DNA of 64,000 nucleotides from positions 744,001 through 808,000 of the forward strand of contig CP158635.1 in NCBI GenBank assembly GCA_050273025.1. Direction: 5' to 3'. Positions 1 through 43,121 of this stretch are shown piece after piece (position 1 is the stretch's first letter; the number at the start of each line of letters is the position of its first letter). A program made the translations under genes and the position numbers. A model generated the notes under the pieces. The model was not told the origin of the DNA. It searched no databases and was given only the letters and a program-made list of their open reading frames with translations. The DNA comes from Cenococcum geophilum (Eukaryota).

Positions 1-2
1 CA

Positions 3-5929: not shown

Positions 5930-6349
5930 TATAACAGGACCTTATAGTAGATACTACAGTAGGCTTGTTAATAGGCTGGGTATATAGGAATTGCAGGAAG
6001 TCAATAACATAATAATAACTGGTGGAGTGGTTGCCTAATAAATTAACTCTAATTATATTCTAAGAATTACTATAAGGAAGGAACTATCTAGGTAGGGACT
6101 AAGGGTCCTTAAATACACAACTATACTCCTAAGAAAGTCGTTACTTTATCTATTCTATCTGCTCTATTCGCTTTGTTATAGATCTTGTAAATTATACAGA
6201 TTACACAGATTATATCACGTGACTCTGCTTACTATTCCTTGTTACATAGTTCCACAGGTTCTATCCTAAACCGTGCCTATATTAACCAACTAGCTTCCTC
6301 TAACTTCTTTCTAAGTAGTTATAATATTATACTTAAAGCGTTCGTAATA
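5930..6349 (-). repeat. Gypsy 3' LTR
   Basis: Direct repeat of 13534-13953; abuts the PPT (ccatctccctcctcttt on + strand). Confidence 0.92.
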
Positions 6350-12300: not shown

Positions 12301-13533
12301 TAAATTTAGTATGCGTTATTATAATAAAACGCAAAACTTCTAATTAAATATTCTTTTATTCTTTATAGTGCACTATTATCCCTTTATACGTATATGTTAT
12401 ATACTACTAGTCTAGTTCCCTTTACTATATAGTAACTCTAACCACTTCTATAGTCTTTAGCGAAATAACCCTGTTTTCCGCAATTTATATAAGCTCTATC
12501 TTTAAACTATTACTTTTGTTATAGAGTCCGCTCAAACATCTTCTGCTACTAAGATCCTTGGTTTAGCCTATACTCCCTAGTCCTATAATCGCTTAATCCT
12601 TAACCTCTAGGTTTCTATAGTTTCTTACTCCATCTCTTATAGGCTTCTTTAGTACCACTTAGGTCTATTAGCTCTGCGCCATACTATAGTTTCTAACTTA
12701 GCTTTAGTTATTGCGTGCTTTACGTCTTATACAACTATAAAACTCTATCTTAGCCTCTTTTAGCCTGTTCCCTTTAGAAGATCCTATTATTAATCTTAAT
12801 CGCTTAATCTATTAATTCCCTTAGGGTATCCACATCTTCTATTAGAATAATTACGTCCTAGACTTTAGCCTTAAGTCCCTATTTATACTGTGCTATAAGC
12901 GCCTTATCGTTCCATTCGACCTATATAGTAAGTATTTAAAACTATATCGTATACTTAATTACTAAAGTTCGCTGTATTAGGTCCTAAAGCTTTTTTTCTG
13001 CTATAACTGTTGCTTCTAGGTCTCTAAATATCTGTATTAATCGTTCCGCGAATCCTACCTAGCTAAAAAACACAAATCGTACCTCTTAATTGGTAGTAGT
13101 TATTCCGTTAGTCTGTATTTCTATTAAGTAGGGTTTAAACTATTTAAGTGCCCAACCCGTTAGGAATAGTCCTGCGTAGGCTATCTAATCCATTATCGTG
13201 GCTAACTTAGCCCCCTCTTGCATAACTTTAAAATGCATTTACATTAGGAATCCTTTAAGCTTTAATCTCTCTCCTAAGAATCATTTAATTAAAAGTAATT
13301 TAACCTTTGCTGCTCCAATCCCATTAAGTCTTTCCTTAAGTATTTGGTTGTTCTCGTTTAACCTATTAATAATTTCCTATAGCTGCCCAACCGTAACTGG
13401 TTGTAAGTCAGTATCTTGTATACTTATATCTCCACTTAACCTTAAAGTGGTTGCTGCCGTTAACGGCGTCGTAGTGGCTACTTTTAGTAGCATGTTATTT
13501 AACTTCTTAAACCTATAACCGTGGTAGTAATTG

Positions 13534-13953
13534 TATAATAGGACCTTATAGTAGATACTACGGTAGGCTTATTAATAGGCTAGGTATATAGGAATTATAG
13601 AAAGTTAATAACGTAATAATAACTAGTGGAGTGGTTGCCTAATAGATTAACTCTAATTATATTCTAAGAATTACTACGAGGAAGGAACTATCTAGGTAGG
13701 GACTAAGGGTCCTTAAATACACAACTGTACTCCTAAGAAAGTCGTTGCTCTATCTGCTCTGTCCACTCTATTCGCTCTATTATAGATCTCGCAGATTATA
13801 TAGATTATACAGATCATATCACGTGACTCTACTTACTATTCCTCGTTATATGGTTCCACGGGTTCCATCTTAGACTGTGCCTATATTAACCAACTAGCTT
13901 CCTCCAACTCCTCTCCAAGTAGTCATAATATCGTACTTAAAGCGTTCGTAACA
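13534..13953 (-). repeat. Gypsy 5' LTR
   Basis: Direct repeat of 5930-6349; ends ...gtaaca, followed by TSD cgcta. Confidence 0.92.
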
Positions 13954-13957
13954 CGCT

Positions 13958-16900
13958 ATATATAAAACACTTTAGATACTTTAACTAAATGTTTAAAAGT
14001 AGAGTACGGTATAGTAGAGCCTAATAAACGATAAATAACTAAAAGACTTTGGAGTGTTAGCGATATCAGAGCTATACGCATAGAAAACGGACGATATAGT
14101 TATAACAGTCTCTATAGGATACTTAAATTGGACTAAGGTAATACCTATAGTCTAGCGTAAAGAGAGGTGGGCGGTATGGAGTATGCTATAGGTTTAAAAA
14201 GACATTAAGGCCATATAGGTGCCAGTACAATCAGCAGACCTTACCGCGGCGGTGCTGCGCCTTTCCGACCGATTAGTACTAGTAGTGTTAGTATACGTTA
14301 AGGGAAAGAATATAGAGGCACTATAGGATATAACTGGTAAACTATACTAACTAATCTAGGAAATATAGAATAAGATAGGTATATAAACCGATATAATACT
14401 CGCAGGAGACTTTAATTAGCACAATTAGCTATAGGGAGGAAATGACGTATTATAGGCGAGATAGGGAGAAGCCGACCCAATTATTAATCTTATAGTAGAT
14501 TACTCCCTACGTAGCCTACTGCCCAGGGGTACGAAAATATAGCAAAATAGCAACCGCGAGACAATAATTAACCTAATTCTAGCATTAAACGAACTAGCAT
14601 CTATAATGGTAAAGTATATAGTATATGGGATAGAATACGGATCTAATTATAGGGCAATCGAGACAGTATTTAATATTGCGGTCCCTAAACGCGCTATGGA
14701 ATAAAGAATGCTCTTTAAGAATATATTATAGAACAAAATTAGAAATAGGGTCGCTACCGCCCTCCGTATTATCCTAGTGGGTAGTAAAGTATAGCAGTAA
14801 ACAGACCAGCTTATGGATATAGTGCTAGAGGTAGTCTACATATTAACTCTAAAAGCTAGACCGTTACTATATATAAAAAGGTAGTAGATAATAGACCTTA
14901 CGAAGCTCTACCGGGTATATACTTACTAGAGAAATTAGGTAAAGAACTAACGCTAAGCAGGCCAGATGTTACTAGAACTAGAGCAATAAGCAAAGGAGGC
15001 CTTAAAGGAATACTATAATGTAATACGGAAATAGAAAAGGATATATTGGGACAACTTCCTGGCTAATAACGTAAACATTTAGTAAGTAGCAAAATACCTT
15101 AACCTAAGCGGCAACTCAGCGTTTAATAAGATACCACTATTAGTAAGGGCGGATAGATCTACTATAAAAGGTAAAAATAAGCAAGCAGCAGAGCTATTAA
15201 CTATATTTTTTCCCCTACTGCTAATAGGAATAGAGGATAAGGGCCCGCGGCCTTAATAAACGCTAACACTAATGGCGCGTCTTATAATGGAAGAGGTAAA
15301 ATAGAAGATATTTGCGGTAAAGCTATAGAAAGCGCTAGGGGATAATAGACTACTAGCAATAGTATAGAGGCAGATATGGCCGGTAATAAAAGATAGGGTC
15401 CTGCTCCTCTTTTAGACCTTACTAAATAAAAGCGACCTTCCTAACTAATAGAGAAATGCTAAGATTATACCGCTTAAGAAGCCGAATAAAGGAGACTATA
15501 TAAAGGCAAGGGCATAGAGGCCTATCTCCCTACTATCTACGCTAGGTAAGATGCTAGAGTCCGTAGTTGCCGAGAGAATATCGTACGCGGTAGAGACTTT
15601 CAGTTTACTGCCTACAAATTACTTTAGGGTAAGGAAGAAGCGCTCTACTAAATAGGCGCTGCTGCTACTGTAAGAACATATCTATAACGCGTAGAGGTCT
15701 AAGAAGGTGCTTAGCCTTATTAGCTTTAATATAAAGGGTGTATATAACGGAGTATATAAAGAGAGGCTATTATAGAGGCTTATAGTAAGAGGTATACCGC
15801 CAGTACTAGTACGGTAGATTAATACATTCTGCTCTAATTAGACGGCGACTATCTTAGTTAACGGCTATACCTCTAACTAGTAATAGTTACTATAAGCAGG
15901 ACTACTATAAGGATCGCTGCTCTTACTAATACTGTTCCTCTTTTTTAACGCTAACCTAGTTTAGCACCGGCTTAATGCAAATGGAGGCTTAATAGCGTTT
16001 GTGGATAACTATAATATATAGGTTATAGAACCATTAGTAGCAGTAAACCGCGAAGGTATTTAGGCTATTATTAATAGAGTAATAAACTAGGAGAAACGAA
16101 GCGGCGCAACGTTTAAAGGTAAAAAGACTATATTAGTGCACTTTATAAGAAACGCGGAGCGGACTAATACTACCCCGTTTATAATTAAGGGAAAAACAGT
16201 TGCACTAGGGCATATAGCTAAGATTTTAGGGGTAGTTATAGATATAGAGCTTCGGTATAAGTAACATATCACAAAAGCAGCCACTAAGGGCCTTATCGCA
16301 GTAATAGCACTAAAGAGACTCTAGATAGTATCCCCTTTAACTATAAGATAACTATTTAGGGTAACGGTAGCGCCAGTAGTGGACTACGCCTTAAATATCT
16401 GGATGTACGCCTATAGGGGTTCCGCGTTAGCCGTAATAAATAGGGTATAAAGAATTAGAGCGTAGGCAATTATAGGAACTTTCCGCATAGTAGCTATAGT
16501 TATTAGGGAGGCCAAAGCAAGTATACAGTTAGTACGCGAGCGGCACTTAGAGAGGGCCATAAAGCTATAGGTCGACCTCCGTACACTATATAAGATAAAC
16601 CCACTATTAAGGCTCCGTACTAAGGTGCTCTAGAGGTTTACATCCCCACTATAGAAGATAGCCTATATATACTAATATACACCAATAAACAAGATAGAGG
16701 TTATATAACCCTACGTAGTACTACTATAGAAGGACTAATTACCTATAAGCATTAACCCAGATAAAGATAAGGTAACTAAAACAGCTAACTCTACCTAAGG
16801 GATATAGATCGCAACGAGCTCGTCTAGGAGGAGAGGCATAGTAGGGATAGAAGATATTATCCGTAACACCCTTAGCAATAGGGAAGCGGTTATATACTTA

Positions 16901-17712
16901 ATTATATTAGGACTAAGAGCAGAATAGAACCTATACACGGCTAAACTAGTAGTAATATTAATGGTGATAAGATGCTTACTACCGGATCTATAGGGGAGAT
17001 AGATTACTATATTTATTAGTAATTAGGCAGTATTACTAGCGCTTAGCTAACCTAAGTAATAGTCCGGCTAAATAAGTATTGCATAGATTTATAATATAGC
17101 CCGTACGCTAAGGTAAAGAAGTAACCGCTTTCTTATTATATAGGTCCTATAAGGGGAGTTCGAACTAGGCAAGAAGGCAAAAATAGTAGTATAATAAGCC
17201 ACTATACAAGGACGCCTACCGCGAGGACAATAATACTAGGCTAAGGCTACAATAATAAACACCGCAAAAATAAAACAGTGGGGTAGGAAAATACTACCGG
17301 AAGGAGTAGGAAGGTACTTAAGAAAAATGGATACAGCGCTACTAGGTAAATATACCTATAGGCTATATAACTCCCTTAAGCGAGGGGAGGTAAACGTATT
17401 GGCCTAGTTATGGACAGGAATAATATAACTTAATGGGTATCTGCACCGCATTAGGGCGGCAGAATTAGATTAATGTAATTGCGGTTAGGTAAGAGAAATA
17501 GTTAAACACTTCCTCTTTAGGTGTATAAAATAGATAGTATACTAAGAGTAAATGCTATAGCAAATAGATATAAGAAGAGGCAGCTTATCCTTCTATCTTG
17601 GGGGGAAGGCGCCAACTAACCCTAAATAGTGGACACTAAATGTAGACGCGGTCTAAGCGATAGTAAAATATGTAATAGCTACTAGACGACTTAAGGTAGA
17701 ATTGGATTAATA
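13958..17712 (+). pseudogene. LINE-A ORF2 (APE endonuclease, reverse transcriptase, RNase H, C-terminal Cys/His motif)
   Basis: [Q]IL[Q]LNV at the start; AGDFN ~14402; RPISLLSTLGKMLE ~15517; G[SP]LS[P]ILFLFFNA ~15910; AFVD[D]Y ~15995; NxYTA[E]L ~16928; C.CG..RETVKHFLFRC ~17475. Confidence 0.88.
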
Positions 17713-18048
17713 ACCCGTCTACTACAGTTAGAAACTCCTCCCCTTCCCCCCCTTTACGCTTTAACTAACCTATACTACGCACCCTTATGCTACTAGCAGA
17801 TCTCGCTTTAATTACCGAAGATAGGACACTAAATACTTGGAGGAACACCCCCCCCTAAGACTACCTGTTATTAACTACCTACGAGATTTTATAGAATAAG
17901 GTATAAGTAACACTAGGGAATACTAAATAAGGTATATGTACGGGCTTGTACGAGAATATGGCGAGACTAAAGGAAGCGTAATTATGTAATATAGTACTAG
18001 TGCCCTTTAGGCTTAGTGCCTCCGGGCGGAATAAACTTCATTATTATT

Positions 18049-20095
18049 AAAAGCTCTACTAAAAGCTCTACTAAAGGCTTTGCAGCACCTCTACCTACCT
18101 AGTGTACTGGCTAGAGCACACAGTGCGCAGTGGGGTCTAAGAGGGTCCCCCTTAAAGCTCTGCTCGAAGCTCTACTTAAAGCTTTACTTAAAACCCTATA
18201 CGGAGCTCTAAAGCTCTACTAACATACAGCACTAATATACTAGGAAGGTTCTGCAATCGGCCGTATAACCGCCTATACGGTTAATTGCCGTATAATTATC
18301 TTTACAAACGGCTCCACGAACGGCTCCACGAACAACTCCACAAACGGCTTTACGAACGGCTTTACGAACGGCTCTATAAACGTCTACACGATCGCCTATA
18401 CAAACGTCTATATAACTGCCCATGCGATCGTCTCTATAAACGTCTCTACAATTAATTACCCGTACGAGCGTTTGTACCCTATACGCCTATACATAGCTCT
18501 ATAGAAGCTCTATATAAAGCTCTATATAAAGCTCTGTAAAAGCTCTACTAAAGTCTCTACTAAAGCCTCTATAAGAGCTCTGCCCACGTAGTAAATAGAG
18601 CACGTAGTACGTAGGGGGGTCTAAGGCGGTCTCCCCCTTAAAGCTCTACTTAAAGCTCTGCTTGAAGCTTTGCTTAAAGCCCTATACAGAGCTCTAAAGC
18701 TCTACTAACTCGCAGCACTAATATATTAGGAAGGTTCTGCAATCGGCCGTATAACCGCCAATACGACCAATTACCGTACAATCGTCTCTACGAACGGCTC
18801 TACAAACGGTTCTATAAACGTCTACACAATCGCCTGTATAAACGCCCGTACGAACGCCTATATAAACGATCAATTAAACGTCTATATAATTGCCTATACA
18901 ATCGTCTCTATAAACGTCTCTACAATTCATCGCCCGTATAAACGTCTACACGCCTACATATAGCTCTATAGAAGATCTATACGAAGCTTTACACGAAGCT
19001 CTACACGAAGCTCTGCAAAAGCTCTACTAAAAGCTCTACTAAACGCTCTACCAAACGCTCTACTAAACGCTCTATTAAAGCCTCTGCAAGAGCTCTGCCT
19101 ATATTATAAATGGAGCACGTAGTGCGCAGGGGGGGTCCAAGGGGGTCTCCCCCTTAAGCTTAAAGCTCTACTTGAAGCTCTACTCAAAGCTTAATACGGA
19201 GCTCTAAAGCTCTACTAACACGCAGCACTGATATACTAGGAAGGCTCTATAATCGTCTACATAAACAGCTCTACAAACGGCTCTACGAACGTCTGTATAA
19301 TCGCCTGTACGAACGTCCATACAATCAATTAATTAATTAAACGTCCATGCAATTGCCTATACAATCGTCCCTACAAACGTCTCCGCAGTTAATCGCCTGT
19401 GTGAATGCCTGCATGTGGCTCTGTATAAGGCTCTGCACGAAGCTTTACCAAAGCTTTGCATAAAGCTCTACCAAAGCTCTAGACAAAGCTCTACCGAAGC
19501 TCTACACGAAGCTCCACCAAAGCCCTACACGAAGCTCCACTAAAGATCTATACGAAGCTCTGCAAAAGCTCTACCAAACGCTCTACTAAAGCCTCTGTAA
19601 GAGCTCTGCCTACGCGGTAAATAGAGCACGCAGTGCGTAGGGGGGGAGGGGGGTCTAAGGGGGTTCTCCCCCTTGAGCTTAAAGCTCTACTAACATACAG
19701 CACTAATATACTAGGAAGGCTCTATAATTATCTATATAAACGGCTCTATAAACGGCTCTACGAACATCTGCACGATCGCCCGTATAAACGCCCATATAAT
19801 TAGTTAATTAATTGATTAATTACCTATATAAACACCAATATAATCAATTAATTAACTAACTAAACGCCTGTATAAACGTCTCTATAAACGGCTCTACAAA
19901 CGTCCATATAATTAATTAGTCAATTAATTGCCTATACAAACGCTCGTACGAACGATCGATCAAACGCCCATACAATTGGATATACAATCGTCTCTATAAA
20001 TGTCTCTGCAATTAATCGCCAGAACAAACGGCTGTACGTCTACACGTCTGCACGTCTGCACGTCTGCACGTAGCTCTACCAAAGCTCTGCACGAG
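18049..20095. repeat. Higher-order tandem repeat: four ~480-520 bp units built from 11-12 bp subrepeats (aagctctac / aacggctctac / aacgtctac)
   Basis: Unit marker gagcacgcagtgcgcagggggg..tctaagggggtctccccctt recurs at ~18115, ~18598, ~19113 and ~19624. gcagcactaatatactaggaagg occurs in each unit. The same subrepeat lies left of LINE-A (4465-4494). Confidence 0.85.
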
Positions 20096-20477
20096 TGTTG
20101 AACGGACGATCAGGAATGAAAACTCTCCTTATTAAAGAGGGCTCTAGAAGCTCTCTTATATACATCAGGTAGGTCCAAATACAATAACAACGACGTCGTC
20201 ATGTAGTAGGTCATAGTTAAGAGAAATAGGTAATAAGACGTTCGATAAGACATACGAGCTCAAGATACGAGACAACTAAGACATAGTTCGTATAGACGAT
20301 CTAGGTCGTCAGACAGTATTACGATGGTAGTTACAGACCAAAACTCCCCTTGGCGGAATCCGACTCGGTTAGTCAGCATCGCCGCTCTACTTAGGCGCCA
20401 AGCACGCTCGACTTACCCACTGCTTAGGCTGCTCACCCTCCCGCTTAGGTTATGCTTAGGCTGCTTAGTCACGTTAC
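20096..20477 (-). mobile_element. LTR-like fragment inserted in the tandem repeat, apparently truncated on the right
   Basis: The subrepeat stops abruptly at TGTTGAAC (20096). The reverse strand has tatataag and aataa motifs and ends ...ttcaACA, as LTR 3' ends do. No matching opposite end or TSD (acgag) was found. Confidence 0.5.
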
Positions 20478-20908
20478 TGCTCCTCCATCTTATTAACTAA
20501 TTATGCCTTAAAAGTGCTACGTCCTTACTAATGCAAATTATTAACTCTATACAACAATCTTAAGGGCCGCGTTTTAGGCCTACAGGGTTTCTAAAACTAG
20601 GCCCCCCTTAAAATAAAGCATTTGCCCATCCTAAGCTACGCCTATATATAACATGGCGTCCCCAAAGGTATTAGTTAAAGAGGAGGTGCCTTATCTCTTG
20701 CTATAAGATCTCCTCTGGTCGCGTCCGTTCGCTCCATTCTACCTACCTACTACTTAATTTCCATCCTATCTTCTCTCTCTCTTTCTCTCTTTTTTTTTTA
20801 CCTACTGCTCTATAGCTCGCCCATCTATTCCTATAAGCTTATCTCTATATTCCTCTTCCCTCCCTTCTTTATATTAGCTTCTACTTACCTTATCCATTTC
20901 TCTATAAA

Positions 20909-23900
20909 ATGCTAAGAAAAAAAGACCCTTGCGAGTTCCTCGCCGTAGTAAGGGTAAAGGGCTCTAACTAAAGCAGGGAGGGTATAAACGGCACTAAAGT
21001 TTAAAAGCGTCTTAAGCTAAAGACAGAGAAAGCTTATTTTAGAAAGGTAGAGCTATAGTACTAGTAAGTTATAATTAGCGTACCGTAGCGGTTAGATTCC
21101 ATCCCGCTCTAACCCTTTACTAAATAAATTCGCTAAAGAAAATCCTAGTTCTTCTCTATATAACCTAGCATCCTTAAAAGATTTCGTTAAGAATATGGCA
21201 TATAGTATTAATGGCGTTAAGGATAATTTAATAGCAGCCTTAGATACCATTAGCTAGTACTAAAAAGAATTTATAGCTAGCTAGCGTCGTATTAATACCG
21301 TAATACCTATAAATATAACCCTCTCTATTACGAATATATATTCCGTTTATATTTCCCTATTTTCTCCTTATTAGAGTTCTAATCTTATTTAGTTTATTAA
21401 AGGCCCGCTAGCCAATAATCTAAAAATACCTAGAAAAAAAAGGCCGAAAAGGTTTATAACTAAGAACTACTTTATTTATTTAGGAAAGCAGCTATAGACG
21501 GCAGATTAGGTTGCGTATAAACGACCGGCAATAAGAGTAAACAATTAGGCGGACCTTATAGCCATTATTTATTCTTCCGCACAAGTTGGCGAGTATATTA
21601 AGTTTAGCTGTTAAGCGGGTTCTAGCTAGGGTTTGCACTATAAGGTAAAGAAACCCCCCCCCCTCCCTAATACGTATATATATATAGCGTAGTAAGTAAA
21701 TAAATTAACTCAGTTATAATATAGGATGTAACTTTTATAGTATTTCGCAATAAGTACAGAAATATAGAGTTTGCTATTTAAATCGTTTAAGATACTAAGA
21801 ACATAACTATAACACTAGATAAGAGGTAAGCGCTAGGTTGCTTAGCCTATTAAGTTAAGCGGCGGTTCTAATTCTTATATTAGTAAGCCAGAATACTCTC
21901 TATATAAGGGCATAGTAGTAATACCTCTTATTTACAGCCCCATGCTCCTAATACTGGCTATACTTATTATAGCAAAGGCGTTTAGGGACTATAACACTAT
22001 TAAAGAGCTCCTTAACATAGTACCACCGGAAGGGAAGATGCTTTATTTATAATAGAAAGAAAGTATACTTAACACACCTTTCTTTAAAAGTATATCCGTA
22101 AGACAGAAAATTAAAAAGGCGAACATATTTAGCTTTCGCCTTAAAGCGCTAGGTATCTATATAGGATACCCTCAGCCGCTTATAATTTACGACTTTAGGG
22201 CAGAGGGCTTATACTAGATTGGTATATATATAGTTGTTCCTTCTATCTTTAGGCTACTTACTAATTAATTTCTGGCAAAGATAAGCTGTATTTAGCCGCT
22301 TAAAGAATAAAGCATACTAGGCAGAGAGATTTAAATACGTTTAATAATTACTATATGCCTAATAATAGTGGCATAGATAGCTAGGCAAACTACTTCAGCA
22401 CTAAGCTACGCAGTATTATTAATAACCTTTTCCATGGTTTATCTCTCCCTTATAACCCAAAACTATAGCAATCTCTCCTAGTAGAGAAGCAGTATAAATT
22501 TAAGAATAGCTTAAAATATATTAATATAGAGGAGGAGATTGCCGCTCTAAAAGGGAAGAAGGACGTAAACTCTATAACCTATTAAAAGGAGCTTTATACG
22601 TAGAAACGTAAGCTAACTACTAAAGAACTCCATAAGTGGTAGAAGGTGCAGCCGTATAGACCAGATATCGGTAATAAGGATAATACCTTACCATACTATT
22701 ACCGGACTATATTTAACCAAACTTGATTTCTTATACCTAAACGGGACCGCCTTATATCTATACTTTTCGAGGTCACTACCTTATGGAGCCCTATAGGTCT
22801 TAACGCTCTCTACGATATAGTTATACTATATTAAAAGGATACCAAAGTAGAGTTTCGACCAGGCTTGGAGCTAGAGAAGTACCGTTACTCTAACTTAGCA
22901 GGCCAGCGGAAGACAGCTTAATCTCCGCTTAATAATACGAAGATAAAGACGACTTATAATTGGAGGCATATATATAACTGCTATAAGAAGAGTTATAATG
23001 GCTTTTCTAAGCTATGCTTCTAATGTAACTAGTGGATTTTTAGGAAGGCATAATAGAGCGGCCACTGCTAAGCGTATCTAGACGACCGTAAAAGACTTCC
23101 TATTTAATATAACCCTCTTATATACAATAGGGTGCTCGCCACTACTAGCTACTATCCTTTTTGCCTTAGTAGTACTGCGCTAGCTATAGTGTAAATGCAT
23201 TAATTCCTAAAACGGGCTATATAGAAAGAGCATATCTACAGATATATAGAAACCCTAAATAAAAGTAAACCACTAAATTGCCCTTACCTAGGTTTACAAT
23301 ATAGGGCGACATTTAATTTAGTTAGGAAGCTAAAATTCCATCTCTAGGATATTTATTACCTTAACTTTATTAAGGAACCAAAATCATTAAAAAGATTAAA
23401 AGAAGACTGTAAGGTAGAAATGCAGCTAGCCGAAGTTAAAAGGCAGAGGTCCGGCTATAAGAAGGAATTAAGCATAGGTAATAAAGCTCCAGCTAAAGTA
23501 GGATACGGTTTTATTAATAAGATAATAGAAAGCATTAGCCAATGCCCGTTTAACAGATCTATAACACCCTTAAGCCGTTTAATATTAGATTTCGGCAGTT
23601 ATATAAGTAGTGGCTAGACTAAAAACGGAAGCTTTCCTAGTACTAACACCCCACCGCTATCTATGTACAGTAGGATACTTAAGATAATTAACCCTAGACT
23701 TCTCCCTTAAGTGGCCATCCGGAGTAGCATAATATCTGAGTATAATGTAATTAATATAGTGGACCTTATAAACCCTAATAAAGACAGAACGCTTGCTCTA
23801 AATTAAAAAGATTCTAATATAACTTTAACTTCGCGTATATATTAATAACTAACGGCTAAGATTATTGCGTCTAATTAGGGTATAGATCGTCTTATATACG

Positions 23901-24436
23901 TAAGAGATATAGAGGACTATTTAGCTATTAAAGCCTTATTTTACGGCGTGAAACTAAAGGACTTAACTAATACTACTCTAAGCTTAGAATATATGGAGAT
24001 TAGGAAGCAGGAGTATAACGCTCTAGATACTCTAGTTGTTCTTAATAGCGCTAATCTACTTAGCCCTAGGTATATTAATTTTAGCATAACCCCTTATAGC
24101 GTGTACTTAGGATATACCTCTACTTCTAATCCACAAATTAATAGCCTACTATTACCAGCTAAATACACCAAGGGTAATATTAGAGAATTAACCTCTATAC
24201 AAGCTACTCGAGATATTGGCCCACTTACCCCCGTAAACGCGGAGGATAACCAGTTCACTATTAAACGGCTAGTCAAAAAGCGCCTCTGCTAAGTCAGCAG
24301 ACGCAAGAAAGTCCAGTATCTGGTTAAGTAAAAAGGGTATCCTAATAGCGAAAACACTTAAGAAGATAAGATAGATATATATAATGATCTAATTAAGGCC
24401 TTTAAAGCCCGGAAGCGCCTTAGCGTCTTAAAATAA
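20909..24436 (+). pseudogene. Starship captain: DUF3435 tyrosine recombinase with Cys/His zinc-finger-like region and C-terminal chromodomain (multi-exon, RIP stops)
   Basis: ATG at 20909. SSA[R]VGEYI...G[R]GLHYK (21573-21645). GYPQPL.I[H]DFRAEGLY (22165-22215). [QRM]KH..QRD..TFNNYYMPNNSG.D (22300-22380). C.QC..W......HC..H and CP......C..TF.....LKFHL.DI[H] (23010-23360). VQYLVK[W]KGYPNSENT[W]E (24311-24365). GT..AG introns at ~21646-21724 and ~22222-22280. Confidence 0.9.
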
Positions 24437-24949
24437 CCGTGGCCAGGGTCTAAAAGATTATCGTTTAATTATTACTCTTACTCCCTATTAGGTTTAAGGT
24501 TAAGCCTATAACTCTATAATTAGACGGACACATTAGGCACTATTTTCTATTATAATTTTTTCCCCTTTTCCTTTAACTTTTAACTTTGTTAAGGATACTT
24601 TAAGAATGCCTTTAATAGTTATAGTTATAGTTTACCAATAGAGATTTACGCCCCTAACTATATCCCTACTATATAGACTAAAGTTCTTAAATTCTAAGTA
24701 ATAAGAATTAATGCAGTAATATAGACCTACGCTAATTTTAGTATTACTACCACTTACCTCTTAAAAATGTTGCGCCATTGTCTTTCTTATAGTGTATCTT
24801 AGTTATACTATAAATATAAGGTTCCTAGAAAAGGTACCCTACTTAAAATAAGTATCCTAGGACTAGTTCTAGGGCCCTAAATCGCATTTTATTAGAACCT
24901 ATATTGTTTTTATACTAAGCTAAGCAGCCTTATATTACTTAGTTTAAAT

Positions 24950-25720
24950 AAATAAATATATCTTTTATTCGTTTTTTTGCGGATTATAGAGGTATAAACT
25001 AAAATAGCTCTAATACAATCAAGCAATATTAAACGCGGAAAGTAGAGGAATAAGTGCCGGGAGCAATTATTAAAACATATAGGTAAGACTAAGTAAGCTC
25101 TATTTAATTATAACTAACGCTTTTATAGGGAGTAAGTTAAGAATTATAATAGAGCCGTCATAAGTCCGTCTTATTTCTGGCCTAGACGACCCTTATATTT
25201 AAAGAGTGCTGCTAAAAAAGGAGAAACTATTCTTAAGAATTTTTTTAAAAAATATAAGCGATTATTCTATTAGTGCTTATAAGGAATTATATAAAGGAGT
25301 TAGTATAACGTTTAAGGCTGTATAGGTTATAGCTACTATAAAGATAAACTCTACAAAAGTATAAGGCGTTATAATATCGGTAAATGTGTATAAGATGTCT
25401 TAAATTATTAGGTTTCCTAACTTCTTATAGACGCTAAACTACCTAGAGGTTAGCTTTAGTGCAAAAATTAATAAGCTACAAACGGAAAATACCAGGTTAG
25501 CTTAAAAGTTAAGTAAATTAAGAGACAAGATATCTATAGAGATAGAGCTTAAGTAGCAGGCAGAGGAAGAAGTAAGTTAGCTTAGGAATATTAACTAGCA
25601 ACTTTAACGGGAGGCTTAGGACAGCGTAATAAAGTATATTTAAGGGCTTAATTTAATTAGGCTCCTATTAGAGGAGTTAAAGACCTAAGCGCCTCTAGGA
25701 GGTTACGAGGTCTTTTATTA
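24950..25720 (+). pseudogene. Hypothetical cargo gene with C-terminal coiled coil; boundaries approximate
   Basis: Intron gtaaga...ctaac...tag (~25083-25128), then KLRII.EPS[Q]VRLISG.DDPYI[W], then an E/K/Q-rich heptad-like segment at 25440-25690. Confidence 0.45.
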
Positions 25721-26699
25721 AGTTAAATCCCCAATCTAAGCTAGTAATTTAGATAGTTAAAAAATTTAAGTATATAAAATTCGCTATAAAAATAAGAGAT
25801 ATCTAGAAGGTTATAAGAGTGAGTAAGTAAGTAAGTATATAAAGTGGGAATAAAAGAGTATAGGACAAAAAGCGTTCTTTTTTTTTAATCCTAGTTACAC
25901 TAAGCATAGGAACTACTTTAAAAATATAACAAGTAATTAGGCGTTAGGCTTCGCGCTCTAACTTAAGAAAAAGATATATCCTTAACTTTAGACTAGTAAG
26001 TAGTTATAATTTACAAAGATTCCTAGCTATTAACGCTTTACTTAAGCAAGTACTTCCTAAGGCTTAATAACCTAAACAAAACTCTCTCCTCGGAACTGCC
26101 GTCATCGTACAGTAACGCCAATAACTCGCTACCTAAATCGATATTATTATGTAGACGTATAGTAATATTTAGGAATACACCGTCTGCGTTATTCCTGCTA
26201 TTAAGCATTAAGTATTACGGTAGGGGTTCTTAGGTTAAGGCACTTAATTCCATTAGTTGTTATTTATAGGCCCAATTAAAAACCTAATAAGAAAAACGAT
26301 AGATATGGGGTTTTAAACGGTTCTAAAGCATAGGTTAAGACCTAGTAAAGGCTATAACCCGTAGTAGGCGTTTAATAATAATAAAAATGCATATACTAAT
26401 AATTAGAGATATTATTAGTTAATAAGGAGACGAGATAGTATAATATATATATATTTCTAGTATGGATTTTATAAAATTATCTAATAATATTAATTTATAA
26501 AAAAAATAGAAAGGGCCTAATTCTGGGCCCCCATTACATCGCTATAGGTTGGCTATTTTTATATTACTTAGGACCATTTTTGGGACTAGAAGTTCTTATA
26601 TAAGTATTAAAAGAATTTATATAGAAACTGGCCTATTCCTATTTTAATATAACTAGTTTTAAAGCATTCTCTTAAAGTTTATTATCCTCTTACTATAGC

Positions 26700-27615
26700 G
26701 AAGGGAGGAACGTAGCTAAAGTAAGGTGTCTTAGTTACCTTTATACTTGCCGCTATCTATTATATAGTTCTAGCGCTGTAGGTATTATATAAGGAAAGCA
26801 ATATAAAGGCGGGTATTACGACCTTAAGCGTAAGATATTACTCTCTATCCGGATTTTTATAAGTGGCTTTAACTAATAGGTTCTTAAATTTAGTTTAATT
26901 TTACTATTAAACCTCTAGATAATCCCTTTGTTATACTACGCGCCCTTCCAGAGCAAGACATCCTTTAATCTTTTTAGACTAAAGTTATAAGTGTTACTAA
27001 TAGCGTTACGACGGCCATCCCTAGTACTATTAGCCAAGTATAAAGCGCCGCAAATGCTGCCGCTATAGTCATTCCTAAAGCCATTAAGGAATTAATTCCT
27101 AAAAATTGCTCACTAGGCACGAAACAATTCTGTGTCGGATTTACTTATAATATAATATGTGATGACTTACCATTAACTCTCTCTAATATAGTGCTAGAAG
27201 AGGTTAAAAGCTTTCTTAGAGACTAACTTAATAACCTTTAATCTTTAGAAGGGATTTTAACAAAAGCCACTTCTGTATATATCTAGGACTGCTTAATTAT
27301 AAAGCTGGTTTTAATGCTTATCTTAACCACTATATTCTTCTATTTAATATTTAGCCGCTTATTTTATATCGCGGCCATTCTTCTAAGGCTTAGCGTTTGA
27401 TTAAGGGTAGTAATTTATTTAGTATTAGGTATAGTATATTGCATCCCTCTCTTTATACCTATTGTTATTTTGTATATTTTCCAGTTAAAGACTAAGAAAC
27501 TATTTTCCAAGATTAAGATGGAGAAAGGTAAGATAAGTGGATTATATTTAGGAGCTCTCTGCTATACTATTGTGATGACATTACTAATTACTCTTATACT
27601 GGCTATTATTTAAGA
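26700..27615 (+). pseudogene. Multi-pass membrane cargo protein (possibly SUR7/PalI-like topology); start approximate
   Basis: IPKNCSLGTKQFCVGF...C.DLP (~27095-27175), followed by three hydrophobic segments (27290-27610). Confidence 0.45.
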
Positions 27616-28711
27616 ATATATTGCAAAAACAAAGGATAGGCGATAGAGGCGGAAATTAGGGGTGCTAAAGGTCATATTTAGAGATTATAATAGCTATTTA
27701 TAAAAAAATACTTTAATTAAAAACTGGGAGTATAACCGGCGGAGAAAAAGGGCGCTTTATAGGGATATTTTGTTATAATACGTCAGAAGGCCGTATTGGG
27801 AAGGTCTAACTACTAATAGCGTAAGTTAGCGGAAGTATAAATTTTCTTAGATAGCTTTGAATACATACAGTTCTTTATAGCGTTTAGTTTCGGGTTAGTT
27901 AGCACTTTATTTAAATATATATAAATAATTAGCAGCATCTAAATCCCTTATAGTTAGAACTAAGTATAAGTAGCGAAAACATAATACCCTAACCGCGTAA
28001 TACCTTTTTAGGGATCTTAGATGTTTAAATAAGAACTAGTATAATATTACTTTAGCTATCAGTATTTATAATTGCCGTTATCTTATATATAGTGGCTAAT
28101 ACAGCTAAGCGTTCTAATTGGGTTACTCTATAGGCATTAATAGGCCATATAAGCTAGACGAGACCGCGGAATTAATATAGCTAAAAATGTTTCCCTATTG
28201 CTATTTATATTAAGGGGACTATATTTAGCCCCTTTAGCATCCTTAAAATACTTCTCTATTTTAAGATATATTTTATAGCTGCGCTTAAAATTAGTTATCC
28301 TTCCTATTATTTAATCCCTACATCCTATCTATAAATAAATGCTTAAGCCCGCAAAGCCCTACTGTACGCGTCCACGTCGCCGCGGGTGGAAACATTATCG
28401 GGAAATTATTTCTTATAATGGCTAAGTGCAGAGGTGATGGAGGAGAGCCGTCGCAGCGCGCGCAGCGCGCTAGTGTTGCGACTTTGTGGTGTTGAGCCTA
28501 TGACGCGTACATTACCCTTAATAATACCAGGAGTCCTACTGCCCTTACTTAGGGCTCCTGCCATACCATTTAGGGGGGCCATTAAGGGAAACTGGGATAC
28601 GAAAACCGCCCGACGTATAACTACCTAGCTCGCAGCTAGGCCCGAAACTGGCCTTATTCAGCCAGTTAATATAAACGCGCCCTAGGCGTACAATAGGACA
28701 CCCTTAGGCTT

Positions 28712-31700
28712 TGTTGGAATTATAAGGTCATAAGGTCACAGCGGAGGTGTCTTAAGGGTCTAATTGATGATAGAGATGACGCAGACGATGAATTTTGATT
28801 AATTCGTGATGCAGTAAATGCGGTTGATATCTATCTAAATTATATACAGAGCTTAACCTCACAAGGTGTCCAGAGCTTAGTCAGCACCTTATCGCTAATT
28901 TCTGACACTCCCCTATGCTGACGACGCTCTCCTTATCTATCCTAAATAGGCAATAATGAAGCTATTCCTAAATACCTTATAAGTGCCATTCGGCCTATAT
29001 ATAGAGGGAAAACCTAGTAGGTAAAAAACCTCTATTACCTGCTCTGTTAGTTACTAATTCCTAGCGTTACATAGTGCTTTGTAAATTGGTTAATTAGTAG
29101 CTGCTTTATAAGTATATCTCCTGGCTAATCTTTACCTAGTATATATATTACTTTAAGTTAATCTTACTAAACCATATTATTTCGTACGAAGAGGTATTAA
29201 ATCTTAATATGCTTGGCTTTCTAGTGGTATCTTATGTCGTATAAAAGGTTAACTATACCCTTATTGTCACAGTAGAGCATAAAGACAAAAGGGTCGTTAT
29301 TGTCTCTCTCCCCTAGATCTTTTGTTAGCTTCTTAAGCTATACTATTAACCTTACTCCTTTTAATGCTGCCATAATCTCTGCTTTTATTAAGCTTAATGC
29401 CGTTAACCTCTATCTTTAAGCCATTTAGATTACCGCTCCCCTATAGCGCATAACTGCTATGCCTTAAAATAATATCCGATTGTGTTCTGTTCCCTATATA
29501 GCGTTAGTAAAGATACTGTAGCTAGTAGGCAGGTTAGTTAACATAAGCTTATATAAAGGTAGGTAAATCTCTTAATTTAAGTAGGTAATTCCTGTTTTGA
29601 GAGTGCCGTTTAGATATTGTAGTAGTTGCTTGCTTAAGCGGTAGTGTAATTCTCCTAGTACTGCTATGAACCTAGCTAGCTAACTAACAGCATAGCTAGT
29701 ATTAGGACGCGTGTAGTTTAAGAGGTAGATTATAGAGCTAATAATCTATTAGTATACCGTCGCATCGTCGTACTTAAGGGGACTTTTGATATTAGGTTTC
29801 AGAACAGTACTAGCTAGTATTAGTAGCTTAGCCGGATTACAGTTGTCCATTTTTAACCGTTTAAGTAGCTTTTTAGTATATATCGTCTGATATAGCTTAA
29901 GGGTTTGGTTTGTACGGTCTTAATAGATTTAGAAGCTTATAAATACTTCTATAGAACCTAGGTCTTTACATCTCCATTCTCTTAAGATTTTTACCTTCGT
30001 AATATTAAGGTGTCTGCGCTTTCCTACAATTAGCATATTATTAATAAATAATAAAATATACACTTTATTTCCTATAAAGAGATTAGGGTTAGCGTTAGCT
30101 AATATTAAACCTATACTCTTAAAGAACTTCTTAACCATCTAAAACCATTCTCTCGGTACCTGCTTTAGGCCGTAAAGTGACTTATTTAGCTTTAAGTAAG
30201 CGTCTTTTACCTCCTTAAGGTTAGGCTTAAAGTCTCTTAATAGGTTAGGAATCTATATATAAACCTACTCTTATAACGGCGGGTTTAAGAATACTGTTTT
30301 AATATTGACGTGGTTAAGTTTAAGGTCTTTAGCTGCTACCTTTACCATTAGGAACTTAAAGGTGTTGTATTATATAATAGACGCAAACGTCTTAAAATAA
30401 TTAATGTTAGGGGTCTACTTGTCTCCCTAAATGTATAGTCTTACCTTCTTACGAATTACTTCTCCCTTAGCATTATACTTGTGCTTTAGTACTAGCTTGC
30501 TTAGAAGTAACAACCTTCCTTCTAGTACTCTCCCCCTTATAATAGTATAGGTGTGCATTCTCTTTAGGGAGAGAAATTCTTTAAAGATAGCTTTTATCTA
30601 GCTAAAAGCGTCCTCCCTTAAGGCCTAATCTAACTTAATAGCGTTAAAAGGTGCTATAGGTGCTCCTATAGAGGTAGTGTTTTTAGCTTTTAGGTGGATA
30701 GCTTTTATAGCTATTACTAACTAAACCACCGTATTATTAAAAACCCTTATATTTAGTAACCTTCTAGACCTTATTCTCTGTGTATAAGGAATGCGTATTA
30801 ATATACTTTATATAGGCGTCCCACCCTTTATATTACCTTAATTTAAGTATCCCGCTTAATCTTAACCTAGGCTTCCCACTTAATTTAAGCGGCCCACTTA
30901 GTCTTGACCTAGGCTTTCCACTTAGCTTAAGTGGCCCACTTAGTCACCATCTAGCCTACTCTTAGTTCTCGTAACTGGAGTCTCTGTTAGCGCGTTTAAG
31001 GTAGTAGGGGGAGGTCTAGGTCGGTTTAAAGCTTAGCTTATAGCTTGCACCTAAGGTACTCTATAAGGGAACCTGTACTTATTTACTTTAGCATCTCTAA
31101 AGAGCTTAATTGCTTGCGTATATAGGTTTATTATTTTAAATTAACTACTGCCTTTTAACCCTATAAAAACATAGTTAGGTCTTATTTTTAAATTATACTT
31201 CCTAGGGTATTTCTTAAGCGTATTAATCAGGTTGGTATAGCACCTAAAAACAACTAGATTCTTAAGGTTAGGGACTTAATAGGTATATACCTCGTAGGGT
31301 ATAATAGCACCACTATACTCGTCGTTAAATGGGAGAGCTAAGGTTGGTACTTGATTCTTAATCCAGATAGTATATTCGACTGTATAGTACTAGCGTTTAA
31401 CTAGTATATTTCCTTAAAATAGAAGTAACCTTATTTTGTAGTTAACTGTATAGATTGCGCGCTTGATCGCGCTATTATATAAGTGCTTATATAGCGGACA
31501 AGGCTCAAAATTAATACCTTGGGGTATTAATTCGTCTTGAAATCTGCGGCCAAATTCCCTCTTTTTATTATCTGCTTAAATCCAGACAGCTCTATTACTA
31601 GTGAATCTCTCTACTCTTATAATAATCTCTTTAATATACGGCAGTACTTCTTTAGTTTAGAGGGTTTTAAGAGGAATGACCTAGGTATAGCGTATGGCGT

Positions 31701-33629
31701 TATCTAGGGCTAGGAGGTAGTAGTTATAACCTCTAATTAATATACCGATTCGTCCTATAGTATTAAGGTATAGCCCTTAACTAGGTACCTTCTCGCGCCT
31801 AGTTATCTTCTTACTTAGTATTTCTTGTATCTTCCCTACTAGGCAAGCTTCGCACGTACTTTTACCAATTAGTACTACTCTCTTCTTAAGCCTTATACCT
31901 AGTGAGGAATGCTATAGCTTAAATAGGTCGCTATAATTTGTATATCTAGTTTGGCGGTGCTATAGCTTAGCATCTGTTTTACTGACGTTTGGTTATAAAT
32001 TGTATGCTTTTACTATCGCATTAAATGCTTCCTAATACTCTTATAGTACGTAGAGGTTATTTCTTATAATAGCCTTAAATATTACACCTAATCTATACTT
32101 GCTAGTAGCTTAATCGTCCATATTAAAAGTAATTAAGTAGCCTTCCTAAGTAAGAGTCCTTACTAAGATTAGCTTAATTGTCTTAAACGAAGGTATAAGC
32201 TAGACGTCTTTTAGCTTTAGGGTACCGATTTAAACTTGACTATAGCCTATAGTAGGTATAATAGTCCCATTTGCAGTGCGGACCTATTATAGCATATTCC
32301 ATCTCTTTAAGTATATTAGGTCTAATTGGTTACTAGTAAAGTACTTAGTTGCTTTTAAGTCAAGAGCCTAAGCTAGAGACGTTGTTATAAGTATAGCACG
32401 TTTAGGGTTAGGGTTAAGGTAGATTAAATCGCTGTCAAATTCTTCCTTAGCTATTGCTACATTCCCTACTTCCTCTGCCTTAGGAGCACCTTAATCTGTC
32501 TTCTTGGCGTTATTAAGTTAGAATTGTTTAAGTAGGGGATAGTCCTTCTGGTAGTGACCTTTCTAATAATATATTCTGCACTCATCTCTTTCTAATTATC
32601 TTGGCTCTTTGCTTACTTAAGACGACGAGCTATGGCGATTATATAAGGAATAGTCGAATCTACTAGCACGACCTCTGCCCCTTATTCGACCTTGACCTTG
32701 GTTTCCCCTTCTCCCCCTAGGTTCGTCTTTCCTCTCATATACGAGTGTAGCAGTTTGTGTAGGGAGAGTAGTCTCTTACTCCTAAAGAAGGGTAATATAG
32801 CTCTTAAGGTCTCGTTTGTCTTGTAGGTACTAGGTCTTCGCATTCTGCTATATAATATCGCTTAATAGGGCTAGAAGGAGTTGTTCTTTAATATCGTTAT
32901 TAGTTAGTGCTTGAGATATCGAGGCTAGATTAATCTTAAATCGATTTAATATAGTTAGGAACTCAATAATTCGCATCTTTATAGGGTTAAATGTAGTGCT
33001 ATAGAACTCTTTGCGAAGTCTAGAGATGTAGACCTCGTCGTTGGCCTTATTAAACTTCTTTATTTCTTCCTATATTCCTTAAATATTGTACGCCTTTATT
33101 ATCGTACGTATCTCTTCCTAATAGTCGTCTCCTATCGAATTATAGATGATCTTATTTGCTTCCCCTCGTCTTCTTCTTCTATCGGCTGAATTGACTTAAG
33201 CTAGGTCTTCTATACTAGTGACGAAATCCCATTCTTTTGCTATAATTAGGGCTGCCTTATAGGTACACTCCTAGTCTGCAAAGTTATCTTTATTGAAAAT
33301 GACAATTTTACCTGCCTTATGATCGTACGTAGGTGTCGTTAAGGTTGAGGTAGAGGAGGTTATTTTTAGGGGTTAATTTTCAAGTTAGGAGGTGTTGCTA
33401 CCTAGGAGAGATTTGCTACCCGGGCTTATAACCTATTGGAATTATAAGGTTATAAGGTTATAGTAGAGGTGTCTTAAGGGTCTAATTGATGATAGAGATG
33501 ACGCAGACGATGAATTTTGATTGATTTGTGATGTAGTAGATGCGGTTAATGTCTATCTAGATTATATGTAGAGCTTGACCTCGTAAGGTATCCAGAGCTT
33601 AGTTAGTACCTTATCGCTAATTTCTAACA
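28712..33629 (-). mobile_element. Complete Ty1/Copia LTR retrotransposon, RIP-degenerate
   Basis: 196-bp LTRs at 28712-28907 and 33434-33629; TSD ggctt (28707-28711 / 33630-33634); PBS ggttataagccc (RIP of GGTTATGAGCCC) next to 33433; PPT next to 28908. Order: gag, protease, integrase, RT (LNKSLYGLKQ ~30165-30190), RNase H (KAKHI ~29210). Confidence 0.93.
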
Positions 33630-43000: not shown

Positions 43001-43121
43001 TAGGTAGCCCCCTTATATAAAAAGACCAACTATACTACAGATAGATTAGGCTAAAGGGCGCCGATTTATGCGAAGACAAGTTACTAGAATATTTAATAAG
43101 CCTTTAGACTTTTATTATATA

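Follow-up and report, generated by a model that had tools for sequence, protein, structure and literature searches.

The locus raises the question of whether a tyrosine recombinase, a Cys/His region and a chromodomain that follow one another in a single reading frame once made up one protein and, if they did, what that protein could have meant for the mobile element that encoded it. We examined it within a window of 64,000 nucleotides, the whole stretch of DNA analysed. Comparison with relatives identifies positions 20909-24436 of the plus strand as a five-exon pseudogene of a DUF3435 tyrosine recombinase, a Kirc-like captain, composed as follows:

about 20909-21058, plus strand: exon 1 (tblastn with P0002)
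about 21102-21644, plus strand: exon 2 (tblastn with P0002; HSP of 53% identity)
21725-21825, plus strand: exon 3 (tblastn with P0002)
about 21884-22221, plus strand: exon 4 (tblastn with P0002)
22222-22280, plus strand: intron 4, GT..AG, from reading of the DNA
22281-24436, plus strand: exon 5, the last exon (tblastn with P0002)
24434-24436, plus strand: terminal TAA, probably the original stop (P0009 ends ...KRLDVSK where the window has ...KRLSVLK*; stop density climbs afterwards)

The exon limits derive from P0002 (667 aa), the closest relative, which is 65% identical to the window translation. Its residue 1 aligns by tblastn to the ATG at 20909, and the protein extends over all five exons, with four HSPs at 63-68% identity and one, at 21102-21644, at 53%. 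Reading of the DNA showed that GT..AG borders are preserved in introns 2-4, while RIP has blurred intron 1. Against the Pfam family DUF3435 (PF11917, cut-off 25.8 bits), P0002 scores 54.6 bits; exon 4 of the window, taken alone, reaches 23 bits (E 4.5e-5), under the cut-off, which is consistent with RIP damage.

That damage is extensive. The last exon contains 28 internal stops, or 29 in 719 codons when the terminal TAA at 24434 is counted. The two other frames over the same exon have 70 and 105 stops, and the gene frame, followed downstream through two further blocks of 719 codons, shows 66 and then 51. A scan (≤4 stops per 150 codons) singled out frame 2 at 23252-24451. The single-frame pattern of the last exon is above chance, and in 18 of the 18 cases that can be aligned to P0002 its internal stops stand opposite Q, W or R. 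RIP indices are 1.68 / 0.51 in the pseudogene vs 0.82 / 1.18 at the window's left end, which is GC-rich; from ~4 kb to 64 kb the window is RIPped throughout. Differences from copy to copy in run X1 are transitions at 1191 of 1247 changed places (~95%). RIP killed the window copy.

The motifs of the recombinase can still be followed through this damage:

21573-21596, plus strand: box-I region, SSAQVGEY (alignment; SSARVGEY in P0002, the presumed catalytic Arg having become Gln at 21582)
22188-22199, plus strand: HxxR of box II, YDFR in the window (IHDFR in P0002; the His is gone through a C-to-T change)
22313-22354, plus strand: the second His, at 22313, and the presumed catalytic Tyr, at 22352, within KHTRQRDLNTFNNYY (motif alignment; the "H/Y region" of the preliminary description)

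In P0002 the corresponding motifs are SSARVGE, IHDFR, KH and NNHY, assigned by motif only and spaced HxxR-(18)-H-(12)-Y; the Arg of SSARVGEY is what we take to be the box-I residue. The last exon begins ...KLYLAA*RIKHTRQRDLNTFNNYYMPNN, where the homologous stretch of P0002 reads ...RIKHAGQRDPNTFNNHYMPNN, and 22283 is its first full codon. An AlphaFold model of P0002, built from an alignment of 8 rows, had a mean pLDDT of 43 and a pTM of 0.25, too low for a structural alignment. A pentad R-K-H-R-Y is described for Kirc (PMC8092012); its Lys was not located here.

Downstream of these motifs, in the same exon, lie the remaining parts of the protein:

23015-23077, 23153-23245 and 23279-23356, plus strand: three C2H2-like Cys/His motifs (alignments with relatives)
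23357-24256, plus strand: in-frame linker, ~300 residues long and probably disordered (collinear with P0109, P0107, P0006, P0008, P0005 and P0015)
about 24257-24412, plus strand: chromodomain (Pfam Chromo PF00385, 26.7-27.4 bits, E 3-5e-6, cut-off 25.1)

RIP turned several Cys and His of the motifs at 23015-23356 into Tyr. The third motif, for instance, reads CPYLGLQY...KFHL*DIY in the window and CPHLGSQC...KFHLQNIY in P0006, 23279 being its first Cys. Pfam matches to zf-C2H2 in the relatives are weak and all under threshold. Positions 23420 (ATG) and 23948 (GTG), landmarks of the preliminary description, are start codons within the stop-to-stop ORFs 23348-23617 and 23879-24292. Together with 22283, 23279 and 24251, where the motif QFTIKRLV begins, they lie where that description had placed them, all in one frame (start mod 3 = 2). 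In the linker part of the model of P0009, pLDDT is about 50-69.

Relatives that escaped RIP indicate whether this continuity is original. Cys/His region, linker and chromodomain occur in one protein in three of them. One, from Lachnellula arida, is a gene model with 879 aa; the two others are ORFs without interruption, 397 and 440 aa in length. P0107 residues 237-878 align to window 22385-24424 as a single HSP in frame 2 (E 2e-67), and P0109 residues 1-393 to window 23195-24412 (E 1e-20). P0079 joins two chromodomains to a Cys/His region that matches P0107 at E 3e-10, and the linker is tiled by the ORF fragments P0006, P0008, P0005, P0015 and P0009. These fused relatives came from a profile search for longer proteins; a homologue search with P0001 residues 690-1010 among proteins of 605-1925 aa passed 0 of 4124 candidates. 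Judged from these alignments, the fusion is ancestral, and recombinase, Cys/His region and chromodomain formed one ORF. The in-frame fusion first proposed for the locus holds, being continuous from recombinase to chromodomain in the last exon of the window and from Cys/His region to chromodomain in the relatives. No relative in the compared set combines a complete catalytic region with a chromodomain: P0002 ends at a W codon ahead of the third zinc-finger motif, and the gene model of P0107 has neither the box-I nor the KH...Y segment. P0003 (41% identity) and P0004 (37%), two further recombinase relatives, carry long C-terminal tails that lack a chromodomain, so that the domain is not universal in the lineage.

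One could suspect that the chromodomain is foreign, either the end of an integrase from a Ty3/Gypsy element (chromovirus) or an independent ROU50-like gene, which came to lie in frame downstream of the captain by chance. The window does contain a RIPped Gypsy (7317-9873, minus strand), tblastn places the Gypsy polyprotein P0040 on 24035-24412 (E 1.6e-13), and a separate chromodomain gene is described at the far end of the Starship Sanctuary (PMC12506042). The length of the P0040 alignment, which begins well upstream of the domain, was not reproduced with un-RIPped relatives, and we read its upstream part as compositional: what these relatives have in common with P0040 is only the 61-residue chromodomain (49% identity), and the 300 residues ahead of it are homologous to captain-linked ORFs. 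Pfam matched Chromo and nothing else in the three plus-strand frames of 23400-25800, with no rve, RT or RNase H. Stops between zinc fingers and chromodomain are all TAA or TAG and fall at Q/W positions where close relatives align. A true stop ahead of the chromodomain in intact homologues, or a Gypsy fragment around it, had been named as what would speak against the fusion; the relatives have no stop there, and no integrase or RT domain adjoins. A foreign origin is very improbable and already largely refuted, and we continue with the fused protein.

The chromodomain itself is well recognisable. The Pfam search proposed earlier returned PF00385 in the broken window sequence above the cut-off (27.4 vs 25.1 bits), and the relatives score higher (P0107 44.6, P0109 49.6, and P0079 63.3 with two domains). 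Fold was assessed on the relative P0009. Residues 91-148 of its model have block-mean pLDDT of 89-97 and belong to the class with a three-stranded sheet and a C-terminal helix. In Foldseek, the best PDB match was CBX7 (4x3s_B; TMt 0.84, rmsd 1.2 Å, 44% identity), and HP1 (1kna) gave a TMt of 0.86. The chromodomain of this relative is thus predicted to fold as a canonical HP1/CBX chromodomain. In alignments to 1kna, 6asz (Y24F) and 6mha (Y24W), HP1 Y24, W45 and Y48 correspond to P0009 F89, W114 and Y117, W45 and Y48 being what we take to be the numbers of the HP1 cage residues. The window has F at 24254-24256, a TAA in place of the W at 24329-24331, and Y at 24338-24340. The F/W/Y methyl-lysine cage is kept across the captain-linked chromodomains.

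We then considered the element that carried the gene, for which the following features could be delimited:

20215-20331, plus strand: piece of an unrelated high-copy repeat, the left flank, ending ...ATGGTAG (second copy at ~42775-42890, minus strand; loose contig ends)
20332-20908, plus strand: putative 5' terminal leader, 577 bp from the left end to the start codon (junction; ATG alignment to P0002)
24437-28227, plus strand: downstream sequence, repeated about as much as the gene (summed depth, variant-contig counts)

The left junction (20331/20332) is sharp and lies inside another repeat. Loose contig ends reach "behind" 20331 in 4 of 4 runs with a common consensus, AAGGAACTT..., and the repeat copy at ~42775-42890 (minus strand) shares the left flank and diverges after GGTAG; blastn pairs the flank copies at 20218-20253 / 42888-42853. 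A search for the continuation of the flank gave one match on the minus strand with 3 mismatches, equalled in 12 of 100 shuffles; only its collinearity with the blastn pairing gives this match meaning. The element is inserted into, or abuts, the repeat at 20215-20331. Its gene is the first ORF at the 5' end, on the plus strand and pointing inward, with the ATG 577 bp inside. The right end was not found when the flank continuation was sought on the plus strand of the window, where it had no match, and self-blastn showed no further copy of 20101-28300 in the window. Direct repeats and cargo were likewise not found.

Summed contig depth is not copy number, so we used only variant-contig counts and depth steps. 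At place 21886, distinct variant contigs numbered 17 in X1, 17 in X5, 16 in X7 and 8 in X8. Summed depth stayed roughly level over 20609-28227 in each of the 4 runs; it jumps at 28228. The element family is multicopy in the sequenced genomes, and 24437-28227 is probably part of the same element. This downstream part has a stop-poor frame at 27077-27751 and may be degraded cargo; the three plus-strand frames of 24437-28400 contained no Pfam domain. We also considered the motif RGGTAG, the target-site repeat flanking Enterprise at either end, as a signature of that element. The left flank ends TGGTAG, a 5/6 match, and RGGTAG occurs 92 times in the window vs a shuffle mean of 120, so that the motif is uninformative and carries no weight.

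Most probably, an Enterprise/Kirc-type mobile element has its left part here, from 20332 to 28227 or beyond, and its first ORF once encoded a recombinase-zinc finger-linker-chromodomain protein. Both Kirc and Enterprise-family captains have been reported with this order of domains (PMC8092012, PMC11162782). Kirc, from the Enterprise / Spok block of Podospora anserina and P. comata (Vogan et al. 2021, PMC8092012), has an N-terminal DUF3435 (YR) domain, a zinc finger and a C-terminal chromodomain, as the preliminary description had stated for the chromodomain. As in Enterprise, the gene is the first ORF near the left end, after 577 bp here and after 463 bp ("bufo") in the description of Kirc (PMC8092012); Enterprise copies, too, are described as degraded, RIPped or TE-interrupted and as lying in TE-rich regions (PMC8092012). 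The likeness to Kirc is one of domain description, not of sequence identity or captain phylogeny, and there are differences. The left flank is TGGTAG here and RGGTAG in Enterprise, and the window family has many copies per genome, unlike Kirc/Enterprise and unlike the low copy number given as typical of Starships (PMC11162782). The hosts differ as well, the named relatives being Helotiales and other Leotiomycetes, not Sordariales.

Several Enterprise-family captains are reported to carry CHROMO domains, which were proposed to affect site choice (Gluck-Thaler & Vogan 2024, PMC11162782). That family, whose members are defined by captain phylogeny, is associated there with 5S rDNA insertion sites; the window copy lies inside a repeat. 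HhpA, the captain of Hephaestus in Paecilomyces variotii, is a DUF3435 captain like the window gene and was experimentally required for Starship excision and reintegration; the available text (PMC10104507) mentions no chromodomain for it, and puts it at ~14% identity to Kirc with the target site TTAC(N7)A. That text also reports that duplicated Starships are hit by RIP. ROU50 of Sanctuary in Bipolaris sorokiniana is likewise a Starship-associated chromodomain protein, but is described as a separate 3'-end gene, not fused to the captain (PMC12506042). In chromoviruses such as MAGGY, too, the enzyme that integrates the element ends in a C-terminal chromodomain, and the chromodomains of P0109 and Gypsy are 49% identical over 61 residues; by analogy, the presumed chromovirus logic, a tether to methylated histone H3, may be shared. 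Unlike chromoviruses, the window gene encodes a tyrosine recombinase and not a DDE integrase, has no RT, rve or LTRs, and its sequence ahead of the chromodomain is unrelated.

The ancestral protein would have worked as follows. The recombinase would have moved the element by excision and integration, as HhpA was shown to do, the zinc fingers would have contacted DNA, and the chromodomain may have tethered the enzyme to nucleosomes marked by H3K9me3 or H3K27me3. New copies would thereby have landed in RIPped, repeat-rich heterochromatin, as with chromovirus integrases and, the family being multicopy, its members would have been destroyed by RIP. We infer heterochromatin targeting from the conserved aromatic cage and from one insertion into a repeat (n of 1). 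Since the window gene is a dead RIP relic, the original suggestion that this captain may target heterochromatin applies to its ancestor only.

The same data could be read in two other ways. It is possible, though we doubt it, that the chromodomain had no role in steering, that the location among repeats reflects survival of the insertion and later RIP, and that the domain served otherwise, for example in regulation or silencing of the element. Conservation of the aromatic cage among captain-linked chromodomains and the position of the left junction within a high-copy repeat argue against this, as does the comparison with chromovirus integrases, whose chromodomains, cited as steering integration, reportedly direct it to heterochromatin (from the work of Gao and colleagues in 2008). 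With a RIPped span of ~4-64 kb, co-location with repeats is nearly unavoidable, since almost any insertion into this 60-kb block would lie among them. Survivorship bias is moreover named as an alternative in PMC11162782, which ties the Enterprise family more to 5S rDNA sites than to AT-rich ones. An unlikely reading, concerning the size of the element, keeps the architecture as described and assigns it to a Crypton-like transposon, compact and high in copy number (a "solo captain"), some 8 kb long or slightly longer and without Starship cargo, that would have spread as ordinary repeats do. It would account for the many distinct variant contigs per position (8-17 per run at 21886) and for the level summed depth over 20609-28227 in all 4 runs; Starships are expected to have low copy number (PMC11162782), and Enterprise has itself been placed among the Cryptons, as one group of them (PMC8092012). 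Yet Enterprise in Melanconium sp. is described as four copies of about 70 kb, 3 of the 4 RIPped (PMC8092012), so multicopy RIPped Starships exist. Against it stand also that summed contig depth is not copy number, that the right end, on which the size of ~8 kb depends, was not found in the window, and that 24437-28227 may contain degraded cargo.

Returning to an Enterprise/Kirc-type element with a chromodomain captain, one can go further and imagine a distinct lineage of such captains, mainly in Leotiomycetes, that behaves like chromoviruses and unlike a typical low-copy Starship: it would home to heterochromatin, accumulate to at least 10 copies in a genome, in two or more related organisms, and then be RIPped away. 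It is also seen in a root metagenome. We rate this as speculative and quite unlikely. The sister forms P0079 and P0064 carry tandem double chromodomains, which would suggest that chromatin targeting in tyrosine-recombinase elements is still being tuned.

Taken alone, the locus leaves the general picture unchanged, as it is a dead copy and the idea of heterochromatin targeting was published before (PMC11162782). The locus is a further example of a published arrangement, not a new arrangement. Its interest lies in the fact that the chromodomain of Enterprise-type captains is the one published clue to a possibly chromatin-guided tyrosine-recombinase transposon, in a field where the site choice of Starships is poorly understood. 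With this locus, the recombinase-zinc finger-chromodomain architecture is seen in a second, unrelated host lineage. The element has a defined left junction inside a repeat, the many copies of the family mean that many insertion sites could be compared with histone-mark maps, and relatives with one, two or no chromodomains provide natural contrasts.

All positions at which a preliminary description had placed a captain recombinase, a Cys/His region and a chromodomain in one frame (22283-24436) proved correct:

22281-24436 (+), last exon of the captain gene
22283 (+), first full codon of this exon
23279 (+), first Cys of the third Cys/His motif
23420 and 23948 (+), ATG and GTG starts within two stop-to-stop ORFs of the same frame
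24251 (+), Q of QFTIKRLV

Stop counts clearly mark this as a coding frame in decay. Over the last exon it has 29 in 719 codons and the other two frames have 70 and 105; farther downstream the count in this frame is 66 and 51. Three relatives of the captain recombinase came from a word-based search: P0002 (667 aa, 65% identity, DUF3435 54.6 bits), P0003 (687 aa, 41% identity) and P0004 from Lindgomyces ingoldianus (1087 aa, 37% identity). Starting from an ATG at 20909, P0002 aligns onto the window in five blocks, switching back and forth between two frames. At three of the four breaks the DNA has GT..AG introns of 58-80 nt, and the first break is blurred by RIP. The P0002 motifs SSARVGE, IHDFR, KH and NNHY resemble a tyrosine-recombinase active site, with Arg changed to Gln and two His to Tyr in the window. 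The catalytic roles of these motifs are presumed, from the motifs typical of the family and from the residues described for Kirc, captain of the Enterprise element in Podospora; a predicted structure was too poor to check them. P0002 (Logan) is an intron-less ORF, whereas the window gene has four introns, and it ends at the W codon that also reads as a stop in the window; a transcript from a copy with few mutations may be its source.

An exhaustive HMMER search with 23348-24436 (E up to 0.001) gave 89 matches, comprising many chromodomain proteins plus short ORFs that tile the linker. Among the latter, P0006 takes in the third Cys/His motif and extends into the linker, more of the linker is covered by P0008 and P0005 (80% identity), and the un-RIPped P0015 leads from the linker into the chromodomain; the relative P0009 ends in ...KRLDVSK, at exactly the place where the window has ...KRLSVLK and then a TAA (24434). 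A profile of the linker-tiling ORFs, run against longer proteins, found eight, including P0107 (879 aa, annotated in Lachnellula arida), P0109, an ORF of 397 aa without interruption, and P0108 from Hyaloscypha bicolor. P0107, whose gene model lacks the box-I and KH...Y segments, matches 22385-24424 of the window as a single frame-2 HSP (E 2e-67), and P0109 aligns over 23195-24412; both span the Cys/His region to the chromodomain in one protein. In another relative, P0079, the Cys/His region (matching P0107 at E 3e-10) is followed by two chromodomains in tandem. The Pfam check suggested along with the preliminary description returned Chromo as the single match in the X-filled frame (~24257-24412, 26.7-27.4 bits vs cut-off 25.1).

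A chromodomain in this position could also be a Gypsy fragment, or belong to a separate gene, the refuting case given in the preliminary description. Among the relatives collected, no protein is both catalytically whole and chromodomain-bearing: P0002 ends at the stop that it shares with the window, and the C-terminal tails of P0003 and P0004 carry no chromodomain. Both origins are nonetheless very unlikely, because the window is collinear throughout with the linker/chromodomain relatives in a multiple alignment; because, among the 28 internal stops of the last exon, the 18 that align to P0002 all sit opposite Q, W or R; because Pfam finds no integrase or RT domain in any plus frame of 23400-25800; and, for Gypsy, because the un-RIPped relatives have only the chromodomain in common with a Gypsy polyprotein.

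The model of P0009 shows a confident three-strand-plus-helix fold (mean pLDDT 89-97 for residue blocks within 91-148) that superposes on CBX7 (TMt 0.84, rmsd 1.2 Å, 44% identity), HP1 (TMt 0.86), Polycomb and other H3K9me3 or H3K27me3 readers. By alignment to HP1 and its Y24F and Y24W variants, the cage positions are F, W and Y in the captain-linked family; the window retains F and Y, and the W codon is now TAA. Two tandem chromodomains follow the Cys/His region in P0079 (440 aa) and P0064 (217 aa); in P0079, Pfam Chromo matches two stretches (63.3 bits), both aligning to the single domain of P0107, and the portions of the literature available contain no mention of such a double variant. The Pseudogymnoascus proteins P0110 and P0111, which combine a Myb-type DNA-binding domain with Chromo, also hit the profile of linker plus chromodomain (E 3.6e-13 and 4e-12); chromodomains of this type may be joined to different DNA-binding modules as well.

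Comparing contigs from four runs (X1, X5, X7 and X8) with 17000-29000 gave thousands of short matching contigs, 85-99% alike. Differences among copies are nearly all transitions (1191 of 1247 changed places in X1), every copy seen carries RIP-type differences, and a single place in the captain gene has up to 17 different variant contigs. The captain family is therefore multicopy. Summed contig depth is approximately level over 20609-28227, and far higher leftward and again from 28228. In all four runs there are contigs that track the window as far as 20331 but have AAGGAACTT... from there on. A second copy of the flank in the window (~42775-42890, minus strand) also has ...ATGGTAG and, past it, goes on as the diverging contigs do, so the left end of the element lies at 20332, inside another repeat. 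From there to the start codon there are 577 bp, compared to 463 bp before Kirc in Enterprise, and the left flank ends in TGGTAG, compared to RGGTAG (PMC8092012), a motif too common in the window to carry weight. No right end, direct repeat or recognisable cargo was found in the window or by Pfam on the plus frames downstream. The co-repeated downstream part includes a stop-poor frame (27077-27751, plus strand, no more than 4 stops per 150 codons) with long hydrophobic stretches resembling membrane helices and no Pfam match, which could be a degraded passenger gene. In the root metagenome X7, contigs 85-99% alike cover all 12 kb, and 660 reach at least 99%; a root sample therefore contains the fungus or one closely related to it.

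The window is fungal, and the captain gene is situated inside a RIP block. The first 3.3 kb of the window have a GC content of 0.55 and no RIP signature; from ~4 kb to the end, GC is ~0.27-0.44 and the RIP indices are strong (TpA/ApT 1.6-1.85; (CpA+TpG)/(ApC+GpT) 0.46-0.65). Besides the captain element, the window holds:

3-1052 (+) and 1849-2448 (-), long ORFs in the GC-rich un-RIPped edge (1-3300)
5930-13954, full-length RIPped Gypsy-type LTR retrotransposon, pol remnant at 7317-9873 (-)
5930-6350 and 13534-13954, its 421-bp LTRs, 89% identical to each other
15485-16141 (+), RIPped reverse-transcriptase remnant (RVT_1 32.6 bits vs cut-off 29.6)
18146-20100, satellite of ~500-bp period directly left of the captain element, with 12-bp and 23-24-bp sub-repeats
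28714-28907 and 33436-33629, direct-repeat pair, spacing 4.7 kb
38609-38813 and 63495-63699, direct-repeat pair, spacing 24.9 kb
43117-43485 and 57902-58058, direct-repeat pair, spacing 14.7 kb
53832-54755, minisatellite, 62 copies of the 15-bp unit CTTAAGCAGGAGAGG, strongly skewed in GC and AT

Judged by eye, the edge ORFs, ordinary in appearance, may encode a transcription factor and a riboflavin-kinase-like protein; the RIP block therefore begins right beside normal genes. No chromodomain of its own was detected in the Gypsy element at 5930-13954. The reverse-transcriptase remnant appears, by eye, to be part of a non-LTR (LINE-like) element reaching ~18.1 kb, and the three direct-repeat pairs (86-94% identity) may be the ends of other nested elements. 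In each of the four runs, summed contig depth peaks by a wide margin at the satellite, reaching ~87,000 in X1.

The domain architecture of the captain gene is already published: PMC8092012 describes Kirc, with logos from 279 homologs, as a tyrosine-recombinase domain (R-K-H-R-Y) followed by a central Zn finger and, at the C-terminus, a chromodomain. The gene described here is a further, dead example of this Kirc-type architecture. In the most likely account, the tyrosine recombinase would move the element, as HhpA, captain of Hephaestus in Paecilomyces variotii, was shown to do (PMC10104507), the zinc fingers would add DNA contacts, and the chromodomain would hold the enzyme at methylated H3 and so favour insertion in heterochromatin. 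Such a bias has support from the conserved cage and from a single insertion into a repeat; against targeting, anything within a 60-kb RIP block sits among repeats. A search of the literature outside supplements found no published report of this captain lineage. What it adds to the work on Kirc is modest: many copies, a left junction of defined position, and relatives that carry a pair of chromodomains.
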